DNA of 24,291 nt. It comes from a virus. The stretch's first letter is position 1. Each line of letters opens with the position of its first letter. Of this stretch, positions 8,490 through 23,467 are shown one piece after another. The stretch lies in UHGV virus genome UHGV-0018110; one strand, given 5' to 3'. Made by a program: the position numbers and the translations under genes. The notes beneath the pieces were generated by a model. It did not search any database, was not told the origin of the DNA, and saw nothing but the letters and a program-made list of their open reading frames with translations.

Positions 8490-9094
8490 GCGTTCACTCT
8501 CAGATTATCAATCAAATGGATGGCCGAGGCCGGGTAATATTCACCGCCGACGACAATCTCCTCGGGGGTGTAGGGGTAAACAGTCAGCGCGTCGCCGTGA
8601 TAGCATCCCGCGCCGACATACAGTTCGCCGGTCGAGCTCAGACTGATAGCCAGCCCGGTCAGGTGGCGACTTGCCGGTTTGGCGTCTTCAATCAGTCGCT
8701 CAAGCTCCTGATACATTTCGTCAGTGATGCCGCTGTCGAGGACGCCAACAACGAGGCGGAATGTGCCTGGCTCCTCGTCGAGTTGCCACCACTCGCGCAC
8801 CTCAATCAGAAAGCCGAGCGGCTCGACGACCCGACGCAATGCGCTGATGGTGCCTTTGTGCTGATGGACGAAAAACGAGGACGCGCAGACGCTGCGCTTT
8901 GTCGCCTCCAGCCATTTCTCATCCCACCTGTCGACCGACAGCGCCCACGCCAGATACGGCAGCAGCTTTACCGGGCAGGTGCGCCAGTTCCACAGGGTGC
9001 GCAGCGGTACCGGCACGCGCTGAATCTCAGAGAGTGCAGCAGCGGCGGCAACTTCCAGCGGCGACGAGCCAACGGGTAACAGCCTGTCACTCAT
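8486..9094 (-). CDS. I: Baseplate assembly protein I
   Basis: 202-aa ORF between J and H, coupled by start/stop overlap; P2 gpI position and size. Confidence 0.85.
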   Translation of the reverse strand: MSDRLLPVGSSPLEVAAAAALSEIQRVPVPLRTLWNWRTCPVKLLPYLAWALSVDRWDEKWLEATKRSVCASSFFVHQHKGTISALRRVVEPLGFLIEVREWWQLDEEPGTFRLVVGVLDSGITDEMYQELERLIEDAKPASRHLTGLAISLSSTGELYVGAGCYHGDALTVYPYTPEEIVVGGEYYPASAIHLIDNLRVNA

Positions 9095-9995
9095 CCGAGC
9101 CCCCGATAGTTATCTGGTACTCGGTGCAGTTCGACGCCTGCGACTTACTCAGCACAATATCGGTCTGAGGTGATGCCAGCTCGACACGCTGCACCCCCTC
9201 AACATGCAGCGCCGCGTAAATGGCCGACAGACGGATATCACGCCCGAGGCGGTGCTGCGCGCTGATGTAGCTCTGCAGCTTCTGCTCTGATGCCTGCCTG
9301 ATGGGTTCAGATTCGGGGCCGGGGTAAACGTAGAGCGTCGCGTCAATCTGGTACGGCACAATCTCGGCTGACTGGACGGTAACCCGGTCGGCCACCGGGC
9401 GCACATCTTCGGCATTCAGCGCTTTATCAACAATCGCCAGTAGTTCAGGACTAGCAGTGCCGTCACCCTCGCGCGATAGCACGGTAATCGTCACGCAGGC
9501 TGGCGACGGACTTGCGACCGAGACGTCAGCGACCCGCCCGTCGGCGCTGCGACCGTGATACTCATATGCCCCGACCGGACCCGCCACGCTCAATCCCTCA
9601 AACGCCTGTTGCGTGCGCAGTCGCAGGTCAGTATCGGATTCCATAACGGCAGGTGTCGGCGGAATGGTGGTGTCATCCGCCGGGGCGATGGTCAGGCGTT
9701 CGGTATTGTTGTTCCCTGCCACGACGTCGAGGTCGTTACCGGCGGAATATGCCAGCGTCACCGCCTGCGCGGCTTCGTTCACCCGCTGACGCCAGATAAC
9801 TTCACGGTAGGCGTTTTCCTGCAGCAGCTTAACAATCGGCTCTGACTCAAGCGCGAGCGTCCGGGCAATGGACTCCTGCTGGTCTTCGGGATAGAGCGAA
9901 ATCAGTATCGCTTTGCGTTCCGCAAGGATGGTTTCATAGTCCAGTTCCTCAACCACGTCGGGAACGGGTAACTGACTCAGGTCAACGGTTGCCAT
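9087..9995 (-). CDS. J: Baseplate assembly protein J
   Basis: 302-aa ORF between W and I; P2 gpJ position and size. Confidence 0.85.
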   Translation of the reverse strand: MATVDLSQLPVPDVVEELDYETILAERKAILISLYPEDQQESIARTLALESEPIVKLLQENAYREVIWRQRVNEAAQAVTLAYSAGNDLDVVAGNNNTERLTIAPADDTTIPPTPAVMESDTDLRLRTQQAFEGLSVAGPVGAYEYHGRSADGRVADVSVASPSPACVTITVLSREGDGTASPELLAIVDKALNAEDVRPVADRVTVQSAEIVPYQIDATLYVYPGPESEPIRQASEQKLQSYISAQHRLGRDIRLSAIYAALHVEGVQRVELASPQTDIVLSKSQASNCTEYQITIGGSDE

Positions 9996-19807: not shown

Positions 19808-19832
19808 AAGCCGCCAGCATGGCGGCTTTTTC
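19808..19832 (+). terminator. Rho-independent terminator after Q
   Basis: Perfect 7-bp stem gccgcca-gca-tggcggc (19810-19826) followed by ttttt. Confidence 0.7.
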
Positions 19833-19975
19833 ATACCCCGCCACCATCACGCCTCAGATGCGCCACACGCGCACCACCACACCCGACCACCAACGAACCG
19901 ACAGCGACCACGACCGCGCCATCACGACGCGCTCAGACGATAATTTTTATTATTACGCACCACCGCTGGCGCGCA

Positions 19976-19994
19976 ATGCTTTCCCCGCCACGCC
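19976..19994 (-). other. cos site (19-nt cohesive end) of a P2/186-family phage
   Basis: The reverse complement of 19976-19994 is GGCGTGGCGGGGAAAGCAT, identical to the 186 cohesive end and two mismatches from P2 GGCGAGGCGGGGAAAGCAC as I recall them. Adjacent sequence (tgcgcgc.agcggtggtgc, cgtctgagcgcgtcgtga) also resembles the P2 left-end sequence. Confidence 0.6.
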
Positions 19995-20089
19995 TGCCCG
20001 CTTAACGGGTCGCTTTTAATGCAGGTGCATCAGGAGCCCCGAGCCGCGCCAGCGCTGGCGCTGGCTCACAAATTCTGGAATCAAAAACG

Positions 20090-20225
20090 CATGCAATTTA
20101 ATGCAAGATAATGCATTCAAATTGAGTTTATGATACTGATCGGTCAGTCATGCCTTCATTCTTAGGTTTGATATGGCACAGGCTACCTTGTAACAATTAG
20201 GGATTTTTCAAAAAGGTGACTACCC
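20090..20225 (+). promoter_or_regulatory. Putative promoter/operator region of the AT-rich three-gene operon
   Basis: AT-rich leader with three ATGCA motifs (atgcaattta atgcaagata atgcattc, 20091-20118), -10-like tatgat and taacaat candidates, and AAGGTGA about 7 nt before the ATG at 20226. Confidence 0.35.
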
Positions 20226-21284
20226 ATGGCAGGTGAAACTCAAAATATTTCAGCAATGGCGGAAAAGATATCTTCCGATTTATTTAAGTGGTTCAAGTGG
20301 GAGCTTGTTGGGGTAACCAATGAAAACTTTCAGTGTTTGAAGTCTACGCAACATAAAACAAAGTCTGGAACACACCCGACTGATGTTGTTTTTTCCTATA
20401 AGGATCCATACTTAAATCGGACGATTTTTTTAAATACAGATTTAAAAAGTTATGTAAAAGGGTCGATAACAGCAACCTCAATGCGAAACGCATTAGTCTC
20501 ATTGGCTAACTCTATTGATTGCGCAGAAGGTAGCAAGGAATGGAAGGATAGATACTCTTATCAAAGTGGCTCTTCTGAGGTTAGAGGAATGCTCTTTGTA
20601 TATAATCATGATGGTGAGTTTGACAGATCGTTCTATGATGTGTTTTATCAGTCTTATAATGCAGAAACTGATAAAACAAAACGGGGTATTAACCTTGATA
20701 ATATTCCTCTAAAACAAGGTCAGAAGATTCATATTATTGAGCCGAGAACTATAAATTATTTGCAATCAATAATTACGGACTTGTCTCAACTGAGTCACAA
20801 TCGAGAATTTCCTTTAGGTAAAAATTACCAGTTCTTTTACCCAGACCTATCACTTCATAAAGTTAGCGGGTCACCTGAAGAACACCCGGCAACAGTAGAG
20901 TTGTTAACGGGGCCTTTTTTGATAATTAAACACAACGATGTTAAACATTGTGATGAAGAAACTTTAGAGTGGAAAACAACCTATAAGCATGGTTATGTTA
21001 TTTATTACAATGGCGAGGGTAATAATGAATTAGAGTTTGTTTATATTCTTGATACGTTATCAAAATACCAACTCTTGGATGGAAATGAAAAGATAAGAAT
21101 TAGAATTGTACATCCAAGCATTTATAAAGATGTTCGCAGTATTTTTATGCGTGCTAAGGAAACATACTGTAGAGAATGGGGTTTCGATGAACATAAAAAA
21201 ACCATCATTGATGCCATTGATTTTCACCAAGTTGAATTTACAAAACCTCACTTCAGTTCTGTTGAGATTGGTTGGGAGCGATAA
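20226..21284 (+). CDS. Hypothetical protein, operon gene 1; possible PD-(D/E)xK-type nuclease motif near the N-terminus
   Basis: 352-aa ORF with good RBS and AT-rich codon usage. Residues around 50-74 read HPTDVVF...IFLNTDLKSY, a hPD...(D/E)xK-like arrangement. No family recognised. Confidence 0.7.
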   Translation: MAGETQNISAMAEKISSDLFKWFKWELVGVTNENFQCLKSTQHKTKSGTHPTDVVFSYKDPYLNRTIFLNTDLKSYVKGSITATSMRNALVSLANSIDCAEGSKEWKDRYSYQSGSSEVRGMLFVYNHDGEFDRSFYDVFYQSYNAETDKTKRGINLDNIPLKQGQKIHIIEPRTINYLQSIITDLSQLSHNREFPLGKNYQFFYPDLSLHKVSGSPEEHPATVELLTGPFLIIKHNDVKHCDEETLEWKTTYKHGYVIYYNGEGNNELEFVYILDTLSKYQLLDGNEKIRIRIVHPSIYKDVRSIFMRAKETYCREWGFDEHKKTIIDAIDFHQVEFTKPHFSSVEIGWER

Positions 21285-21286
21285 GT

Positions 21287-22411
21287 ATGAAAATCGGTTT
21301 GTATAGCGTTAATGACAAAGCTATGTTTGATGCTCTCAATCAAACAAAGGTGACTCATGAAGACATGAAAAGCCTTTTTTTCAAAAGAGGCACTATTATT
21401 TCTAAGGATACAAAACGGAAGACTTTAGCTTTGGATTTTTCGAAGAACTTCCACGGCTATTATGACTTTGAATATTTATCAGAAATTCTTGGATCTGTAG
21501 GGAGAAGAGAGAAAGTATCAATTAATATTGTCAACAGTGCAATTAGTTTAAGTGATATGGAAGTCACAATAAAATCTATATGTGAAGAATTACAAAAAGA
21601 GGGGGATGTAACAAATATCAATTACACCGAGAATGGATTTGAGGTGTCAGTAAAATATGTCAAGCTGGATTTTAAAATGAGCGAGTTTCGGCAATCCTCA
21701 TCTCGCGAGGCTAAAATACAAGTAGAGTTGAATGATGAGGGAGAGTATATTACGCGCTTCCCTCAGAATGCCAAGGCACATGAGTTTAATGAACTTTTGA
21801 TTAAAAAAATAAAAGAAACTAATAATGATGAGCCTGTAAGTCTTGAAGAGATATCGCTTGAAACGGTCAAAGATTCAAATGAACGTAGTCGTTTCTTTAA
21901 AGAACTGATCGTTAGTATGCCAAATTACAAATGTGTCGATGTGTCAGATGTTTATGTCACCCATCCAGTATTAGAGGTTAAAAAACCATCTGAATCTGAA
22001 GATGATGAAGATGACTCGGATGAGGATGATGATGCTGTAATAGACACTGGGTATCATATTTCAAAGGCATCATTGAAAGGAAGGGGTGTCCTTGAATCAC
22101 CAGAACTGGAAGAGTTATTGGGTAATGGGTTTTACATTACAAAGATAATATGGAGTTCGGTAGTCGAAGGTTTTAAAGACTCCGATAAGTATGAATTCGA
22201 AGCCCAGTTTGTGGATCCGGATAAATGTAAGCTGTTTTCTTATCTCGTTCGTGGATGTTATAAATATAAAAAAGTAAATGTGTTTACTAATCGGCAAAAT
22301 GTGGATAAGGAAAAAGAAAATGTGCTATTATTATCAATAGAAAAAACGGCTCGAGAAATCTCTAATAGAATAATATCTTTAAATACTCTCGAGGTAGTCA
22401 CTGAAAAATAA
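21287..22411 (+). CDS. Hypothetical protein, operon gene 2; contains a poly-acidic tract
   Basis: ATG 2 nt after the gene 1 stop with GGGAG upstream (the track ORF begins slightly earlier at a TTG); about 374 aa; tract SESEDDEDDSDEDDD at nt 21989-22033. No recognised motifs. Confidence 0.7.
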   Translation: MKIGLYSVNDKAMFDALNQTKVTHEDMKSLFFKRGTIISKDTKRKTLALDFSKNFHGYYDFEYLSEILGSVGRREKVSINIVNSAISLSDMEVTIKSICEELQKEGDVTNINYTENGFEVSVKYVKLDFKMSEFRQSSSREAKIQVELNDEGEYITRFPQNAKAHEFNELLIKKIKETNNDEPVSLEEISLETVKDSNERSRFFKELIVSMPNYKCVDVSDVYVTHPVLEVKKPSESEDDEDDSDEDDDAVIDTGYHISKASLKGRGVLESPELEELLGNGFYITKIIWSSVVEGFKDSDKYEFEAQFVDPDKCKLFSYLVRGCYKYKKVNVFTNRQNVDKEKENVLLLSIEKTAREISNRIISLNTLEVVTEK

Positions 22412-22422
22412 AAGGAGTTGTT

Positions 22423-23094
22423 ATGAAAACAAAATGGTTTACTGCCAACTTCCCTGCCGGTCTCGATAGGTTATACCAGGCCATCATAAACACGCCTTTT
22501 GACAGTGACAAAGGTTGGGGGTTTAGTATTCTTTCATATGAAGATAAGTATATATCTTCAAAATATATTGAAAGGGTTGAGGTAAGCGAAGTAATCATAG
22601 ACCCCTATGGTAATGAAACTGAGTTTAATCATTTCAAATATGTGCAGTTTAACTTTTGGTTTTTTAAAGCTCAAGGCGGTAACTTCATTTTAATAATTGA
22701 TTCTCCGCCTAGAAGTATCAAGGGTTTTATCTCCAATGTGATTAAGGCAACTGAATCCGATTTTAATGTTTCTTATCTTGTGATTCAAATTGATGAGTTT
22801 ATAAAATTTATCACGCCTCACTTCGAAAAGGTTCAGGTGCACAAGGCCAAATTAAAGGATTTGACTTTTAGTAAAAATACATCTGGCATTTTAGAACTTG
22901 AGTCTTCAAATGACGCGATAGATGAGATGAGAAATATTTTTAAAAATGCAAAATTCACGATTGATAAAGTTAAATTGAGTGTTAAATCTAACACTGGCAA
23001 TGAAACATTAGAAGTGAATTCCAATGGTTCTCTTAGCTTCTCAGAGGAGCTTTTTGATAAGATATTCTCTGCAGTTGAGCGTTTCACTTTCTAA
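22423..23094 (+). CDS. Hypothetical protein, operon gene 3
   Basis: 223-aa ORF with a canonical AAGGAG RBS 5 nt upstream, 11 nt after gene 2; AT-rich; followed by a terminator. No recognised motifs. Confidence 0.7.
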   Translation: MKTKWFTANFPAGLDRLYQAIINTPFDSDKGWGFSILSYEDKYISSKYIERVEVSEVIIDPYGNETEFNHFKYVQFNFWFFKAQGGNFILIIDSPPRSIKGFISNVIKATESDFNVSYLVIQIDEFIKFITPHFEKVQVHKAKLKDLTFSKNTSGILELESSNDAIDEMRNIFKNAKFTIDKVKLSVKSNTGNETLEVNSNGSLSFSEELFDKIFSAVERFTF

Positions 23095-23106
23095 GATAGA
23101 GTTGAA

Positions 23107-23142
23107 AAGCACTCTTAGTAAAATAAGGGTGCTTTTCATTTT
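23107..23142 (+). terminator. Rho-independent terminator of the three-gene operon
   Basis: Stem aagcactctta / taagggtgctt (one mismatch), loop gtaaaa, followed by ttcatttt. Confidence 0.5.
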
Positions 23143-23284
23143 AACTTTAAAAGTTTTTCGAAATCCGAAAGTGTTCGCGAGATTTGTTACCTCGTATTCA
23201 TTTTGATTAGCGAGTTTTTATCAAGGTCAATGCTCTTATAGGTATCGAAACCTGAGCCCGCATGTAATACCCGGAGCTTAAATT

Positions 23285-23467
23285 CTATTCGGCTTTATAG
23301 AAAATATCCGGGTCATCCTCAGCACTTTCACTGTTCGCTAAATCAGCAATAAGAGTGAGTGCGAGCTTAAGGTCTGACGGTTTGCAATTTGCAATCAGAG
23401 ACACCTCTGCAATGAATTGTACACAAGCCCACTTTTGCTGAGTTCGGCTGAAATGTTCGCCAACCAT
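23285..23467 (-). CDS. Small hypothetical protein downstream of a LexA box (candidate SOS-induced gene; tum/antirepressor-like position)
   Basis: 60-aa ORF with a strong SD (GGGAGGG 5 nt before ATG) and a consensus LexA box 22 nt upstream of the start codon; acidic C-terminus. No sequence identity to a known protein established. Confidence 0.4.
   Translation of the reverse strand: MVGEHFSRTQQKWACVQFIAEVSLIANCKPSDLKLALTLIADLANSESAEDDPDIFYKAE

Follow-up and report, generated by a model that had tools for sequence, protein, structure and literature searches.

A candidate PD-(D/E)xK nuclease in a divergent 3HP anti-phage operon of a P2-like prophage

The three-gene operon and its prophage site

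The window analysed here, a stretch of 24,291 nucleotides of the virus genome UHGV-0018110, matches the chromosome of E. coli MRSN346647 (NZ_CP018206.1) with 100% identity. It harbors an operon of three genes, whose products are termed Hp1, Hp2 and Hp3, located in a P2-like prophage between the genes of the portal gpQ and the replication endonuclease gpA. We focused on gene 1, whose product, Hp1, is probably the nuclease subunit of an anti-phage system of the 3HP type that is carried as cargo of low guanine-plus-cytosine (GC) content in a P2-like prophage hotspot and would act in a GAPS4-like manner. The genes and features are:

20226-21284, forward strand: gene 1, Hp1, 352 residues, with a predicted N-terminal PD-(D/E)xK domain (residues ~1-130) and a conserved C-terminal domain of unassigned fold
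20235-20237, forward strand: E4 of Hp1, invariant glutamate in helix 1 (330/330), aligned with E3 of GAPS4a
20373-20384, forward strand: H50-P51-T52-D53 of Hp1, the "PD" element and counterpart of HGxD in GAPS4a, from conservation and hhalign
20439-20450, forward strand: D72-L73-K74-S75 of Hp1, the "(D/E)xK" element that closes strand 65-76, from conservation
21287-22411, forward strand: gene 2, Hp2, 374 residues from the ATG common to homologues
22423-23094, forward strand: gene 3, Hp3, 223 residues, function unassigned, matched by the PADLOC Hp3 model and by a PHROG of unassigned function
20168-20197, forward strand: promoter-like site by consensus match (TTGATA-18-AACAAT plus an extended TG); the region is not richer in these sites than shuffled sequence
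23103-23138, forward strand: terminator-like hairpin with a 15-bp stem and a T run, 9 nucleotides after the gene 3 stop

The PADLOC models Hp1, Hp2 and Hp3, which we take to represent the 3HP (Rst_3HP) system, matched the three genes with E-values of 3.4e-65, 6.1e-36 and 4.9e-8, respectively, and the matches are adjacent, in order and on one strand. Gene 2 starts 3 nucleotides past the stop of gene 1, and gene 3 starts 12 nucleotides past the stop of gene 2, leaving gaps of 2 and 11 nucleotides. In the region 20000-23300, the phage structural genes have a GC content of ~58%, which falls to ~34% over the three operon genes, a drop that fits a recent arrival of the cargo in the P2 hotspot.

The prophage site that carries the operon, flanked by the portal gene and the replication endonuclease gene, is the P2 defence hotspot, from which a three-gene system without predicted domains was reported to protect against P1 (Rousset et al. 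2022, PMC9122126). The cloned 3HP protected against P1 alone among eight phages (PMC9122126). The present trio shares with that system (PMC9122126) the prophage site, the gene sizes and the organization of three co-directional genes. Nevertheless, the PADLOC scores of 219, 122 and 31 bits are low compared to the 792, 820 and 520 bits, end to end, of the E. coli P2-like element L009, and Hp1 is only ~35% identical to the L009-type Hp1, so the trio represents a divergent 3HP subtype. A 2024 survey listed 3HP as unclassifiable.

Motif conservation and predicted fold of Hp1

The initial annotation had read a PD-(D/E)xK nuclease signature in gene 1 at positions 20370-20450. Translation of positions 20226-21281 gave the same sequence for residues 50-74, HPTDVVFSYKDPYLNRTIFLNTDLK, and the span proved accurate within 3 nucleotides, the codons covering 20373-20447 (H50 at 20373-20375, D53 at 20382-20384, D72 at 20439-20441 and K74 at 20445-20447). 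As a bare pattern, this motif is poor-to-moderate evidence. When the gene 1 protein is shuffled, 95% of the shuffles still show a loose D...(D/E)xK pattern, as do 18 of the 28 long open reading frames (ORFs) of the window; PxD...(D/E)xK occurs in 12% of the shuffles, and the strict motif with its hydrophobic context in 0.8% of the shuffles and two of the 28 long ORFs.

The motif gains its significance from being nearly invariant across 349 Hp1-type sequences of 30-100% identity to the window protein, which two database searches and 80 genomic loci had supplied and which were aligned to one profile. H50 and D53 are each found in 344/344 sequences and P51 in 341/344, whereas D72 is replaced once, by glutamate (343/344), K74 is present in 345/345 and S75 in 344/345. 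E26, which the initial annotation had suggested as the motif I acid, turned out not to be conserved, with glutamate in 120/341 sequences and lysine, threonine, glutamine, aspartate, asparagine or serine in the others, and was ruled out as a catalytic residue. The likelier candidate, judged from the alignment, is E4 of the same N-terminal helix, which is glutamate in every sequence covering it (330/330). Altogether, the computed conservation defines D53, D72, K74, H50 and probably E4 as the putative catalytic constellation of Hp1.

Three further residues, C37 (20334-20336), H43 (20352-20354) and C99 (20520-20522), do not vary among 341-345 Hp1-type sequences; both cysteines are invariant in GAPS4a as well. 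These residues may bind a structural metal or be linked in a disulfide.

An AlphaFold2 model of Hp1, computed with 40 homologues, reached a predicted local distance difference test (pLDDT) score of 86.4 and a predicted template modelling (pTM) score of 0.86. Its N-terminal region consists of a helix (residues 2-22), four β-strands (33-36, 49-52, 54-60 and 65-76), a second helix (83-102) and a further strand (117-127), in the order α-β-β-β-α-β of the restriction-endonuclease fold. D53 lies at the beginning of strand 54-60, whose hairpin partner, strand 65-76, ends in D72-L-K74; by strand register, D53 would face D72 in this hairpin. The fold relatives of the model include the R2 endonuclease domain, MGME1, Hjc, McrC, Cap4 and Can2, and each aligns over 90-150 residues of Hp1, so the match is limited to the N-terminal domain. 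The credible matches in a Foldseek search were HamA and the R2 endonuclease domain, in agreement with the other fold comparison; low-probability Argonaute/PIWI and dehydrogenase chains were treated as noise. Computation thus assigns the predicted N-terminal ~130 residues of Hp1 to the PD-(D/E)xK (restriction-endonuclease) fold. The unrelated fold that the initial annotation had named as evidence against a nuclease was looked for by structure prediction and is not what the model displays.

Sequence-profile searches of the PDB with the Hp1, Hp2 and Hp3 alignments gave no meaningful matches. A local Pfam scan of the three operon proteins, with a copy that lacks PF26115 and PF26110, gave no significant ones.

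Relationship of Hp1, Hp2 and Hp3 to GAPS4

A precomputed match to the Pfam family PF26115 (PDDEXK_GAPS4) is present on the identical protein and on every listed homologue that covers most of Hp1. Several homologues are named "GAPS4 PD-(D/E)XK nuclease domain-containing protein" in UniRef, and the Prokaryotic Genome Annotation Pipeline (PGAP) names an E. coli homologue, 76% identical at the DNA level, "PD-(D/E)XK nuclease domain-containing protein". The NCBIfam model GapS4a (NF047933) matched Hp1 with an E-value of 8.6e-11 and 13 of 33 Hp1 family members in all, none near the cutoff.

Profile-profile comparison by hhalign of Hp1 with GAPS4a sequences that Mahata et al. (bioRxiv 10.1101/2025.09.07.674715) give in their supplement revealed a match of 98.1% probability, with an E-value of 8.8e-14 over 239 columns; reciprocally, the PADLOC Hp1 model matched GAPS4a with an E-value of 2.6e-5. 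The alignment pairs T-H50-P-x-D53 of Hp1 with T-H46-G-x-D49 of GAPS4a, in addition to E4 with E3 (invariant in GAPS4a), W25 with W25, C37 with C36 and C99 with C97. D72 is paired with S69, the serine of the GAPS4a "SxK". A four-residue gap follows L73; if the alignment is continued without the gap, K74 falls on K71. GAPS4a carries a non-canonical motif of HGxD...SxK, compared to HPxD...DxK in Hp1. From these profiles, Hp1 is computed to be a remote homologue of GAPS4a. In GAPS4a, either D49A or D59A abolishes defence, and two homologues lose defence when the HGxD aspartate is replaced by alanine (bioRxiv 10.1101/2025.09.07.674715); D53 of Hp1 aligns with D49, of which the alanine mutant is defence-negative. 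The nuclease signature first read from the letters of gene 1 is supported by the model fold, the conservation and the GAPS4a homology, and by this homology gene 1 would encode the effector nuclease of the system, as initially suggested.

GAPS4 needs both of its genes for defence, and their products form a 2:2 heterotetramer, in which the GAPS4b pair was modelled as a ring (bioRxiv 10.1101/2025.09.07.674715). The complex breaks down the DNA of phage and host alike, is triggered by nalidixic acid or by a DNase of the type VI secretion system, protects against many phages and is inhibited by phage HNH homing endonucleases (bioRxiv 10.1101/2025.09.07.674715). GAPS4 and 3HP are alike in gene order and sizes, with a nuclease of ~310-350 residues followed by a partner of ~375-385 residues. 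They differ in that GAPS4 consists of GAPS4a followed by GAPS4b, or of a fusion of both, and its loci (L010-L013) have two genes, compared to three in 3HP; the E. coli-type GAPS4 loci, which consist of two genes only, lie within the tra regions of conjugative elements.

Compared to Hp1, Hp2 has far fewer detectable relatives (52 versus 381 matches), and no Pfam or NCBIfam family matched it; in particular, the Pfam family GAPS4b_N has no match on the Hp2 family. Comparison with GAPS4b needed a profile of the GAPS4b family, as a single GAPS4b sequence was insufficient. By hhalign, Hp2 and GAPS4b are collinear over 211-238 columns, with E-values of 8e-5 to 1.4e-4. When an unfiltered GAPS4b hidden Markov model was run against the 1,513 ORFs of the 80 related loci, the top 18 matches were all Hp2 ORFs, as were 70 of the 84 matches at E ≤ 10. 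The profiles weakly suggest that Hp2 is a homologue of GAPS4b.

In its structural model, Hp2 is predicted to adopt the fold of RdgC, a toroidal DNA-binding dimer (PDB 2owl; PMC1885664, PMC2965237) to which RexA of phage lambda is related (PMC11077077). RdgC shares no detectable sequence similarity with Hp2, which differs in having a helical domain at its N-terminus and a disordered, acidic linker (residues 230-256, 21974-22054). The ring of RdgC encircles DNA, and ring formation and DNA binding by Hp2 are putative; a predicted RdgC ring fold of Hp2 would parallel the modelled ring of the GAPS4b pair. The linker (SESEDDEDDSDEDDD) is strongly acidic and of low model confidence, within a putative DNA-ring protein, and could be a DNA-mimicking autoinhibitory loop; the stretch of GAPS4b aligned to it is not markedly acidic.

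Hp3 showed no relation to the GAPS4b and Hp2 profiles, to PDB sequences or to annotated families, and its identity across the family is 19-23%. The Hp1 profile retrieved 80 genome loci, of which 73 had enough sequence for assessment, and in 71 of these the order Hp1-Hp2-Hp3 is intact, with Hp3 after Hp2 and the genes mostly overlapping. Hp3, which has no GAPS4 counterpart, is an obligate third subunit. Because it is always present and fast-evolving, and the tested 3HP is narrow (P1, one of eight phages), Hp3 may act as a regulator or a trigger sensor that modifies the trigger.

The hosts of the Hp1 loci range from Gammaproteobacteria to Cyanobacteria, Acidobacteriota, Desulfobacterota, Verrucomicrobiota and Zixibacteria. 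In two of the 73 assessable loci, Hp2 is fragmented (L089, 5990-7082; L063, 1389-1853) next to intact Hp1 and Hp3; either decay of the copy or a mistake in the assembly may account for this. In V. cholerae, a 74-residue HNH-domain gene (8898-9122, reverse strand) directly follows Hp3 in loci L004 and L006 and is absent from the otherwise identical loci L003 and L005, a curious neighbor given the reported inhibition of GAPS4 by HNH homing endonucleases. A restriction-modification reading was ruled out, as neither the operon nor the related loci contain a methyltransferase. A megablast search of the phage collection with the operon as query returned no match.

In the window, small ORFs flank the operon at 19819-20019 (forward strand) and 23285-23467 (reverse strand); RefSeq annotates a coding sequence at 19858-20019 inside the first, as well as the second ORF, both as hypothetical proteins. 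A GC-rich stretch at ~20020-20070 beside the portal gene may contain the cos region.

Proposed action of 3HP and alternative readings

The homology and the predicted folds suggest how a 3HP system might act. Hp1 would dock on a ring of the RdgC type, made of two Hp2 subunits and able to hold DNA, in the way GAPS4a does on the GAPS4b ring. The Hp1-Hp2 complex would remain inactive in the absence of a DNA signal associated with phages, for which DNA breaks or free ends are the likeliest candidates. Once activated, it would degrade DNA non-specifically, which would stop the phage and possibly kill the cell. That 3HP as a whole is a three-subunit elaboration of GAPS4, in which the Hp2 ring on phage or broken DNA licenses Hp1 and the fast-evolving Hp3 sets when or on what it acts, is a tentative proposal to which we give somewhat less than even weight.

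Several observations weigh against a GAPS4-like nuclease. The Hp1 score of 41.6 bits against GapS4a lies far under the NCBIfam cutoff of 270 bits, for which reason we regard Hp1 as a sister family and not as GapS4a proper. The position of D72 is occupied by serine in GAPS4a, and the chemistry may differ in detail. Foldseek of Hp1 against the PDB gave no match at E ≤ 1e-3, the active-site geometry is read from secondary-structure register and conservation, and the hhalign probability for homology of Hp2 and GAPS4b is only 52-61%. The narrow range of 3HP, which acted on one phage, P1, of eight compared to the broad range of GAPS4, together with the extra Hp3, suggests that the trigger may differ. 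The literature search found no experiment on any 3HP protein, and the searches on mechanism gave census papers only. Moreover, some PD-(D/E)xK proteins cleave RNA or merely bind nucleic acids.

RNA cleavage, as in some CdiA-CT toxins or Can2/Card1-type enzymes, would make Hp1 a PD-(D/E)xK enzyme that acts on tRNA or mRNA and defends by shutting down translation instead of degrading DNA; we consider this rather improbable. Very improbable, in our judgement, is a silent nuclease-fold domain, serving as a nucleic-acid-binding or sensor module and leaving the effector role to Hp2 or Hp3. Inactive PD-(D/E)xK domains do exist, and Hp3 has no assigned function; yet all canonical catalytic positions of Hp1 are invariant in the 349 sequences down to 30% identity, which would be unexpected in a degenerate domain, the matching aspartate is essential in GAPS4a (bioRxiv 10.1101/2025.09.07.674715), and no enzymatic fold or motif was seen in Hp2 or Hp3. 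The loose pattern is so common, in shuffles (95%) and in the long ORFs of the window (18/28) alike, that a chance match in a protein that is no nuclease might be considered, but it is contradicted already by the fold and conservation of Hp1, and its likelihood is next to negligible.

Alternatively, 3HP may share the GAPS4 chassis and respond to another trigger, with Hp3 recognizing a particular protein or DNA structure of a phage such as P1, and free ends being insufficient. Hp3 is indeed an obligate extra (71/73 loci) that GAPS4 loci lack, it evolves fast (19-23% identity), as sensors often do, and the tested 3HP acted on P1 only among eight phages (PMC9122126), compared to the many countered by GAPS4. 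Nevertheless, the narrow range could reflect the expression level or the phage panel, and we consider this alternative unlikely, although worth keeping in mind.

3HP differs from the other defence systems with nucleases of the PD-(D/E)xK fold, namely Hachiman HamA, Shedu SduA, Cap4, Can2/Card1 and Lamassu LmuA. None of these nucleases has a sequence relationship to Hp1, and they work with other partners (helicase, SAVED/CARF or SMC-like proteins) and other activation signals than 3HP. The nuclease assignment of Hp1 is correct and is not new, being present in Pfam PF26115 and some RefSeq names, and 3HP itself is already in PADLOC. In the literature searched, no paper linked 3HP to GAPS4 or RdgC, or GAPS4b/Hp2 to RdgC, and the GAPS4 preprint (bioRxiv 10.1101/2025.09.07.674715) mentions neither 3HP nor RdgC. 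The putative 3HP-GAPS4-RdgC link, drawn from predicted structures and remote homology, is the sole modestly new point.

This link gives 3HP, known as three hypothetical proteins since 2022, a testable mechanism that would combine a GAPS4a-type DNase, an RdgC-like ring and the extra Hp3. If it is true, defence would be lost in the Hp1 mutants D53A, D72A and K74A, cells would be sensitized to DNA-breaking agents, and 3HP would possibly be inhibited by phage homing endonucleases, as GAPS4 is. An orphan defence system would then have a mechanism, and RdgC-type toroidal clamps would be a recurrent DNA-sensing module of bacterial immunity, beside RexA of phage lambda.
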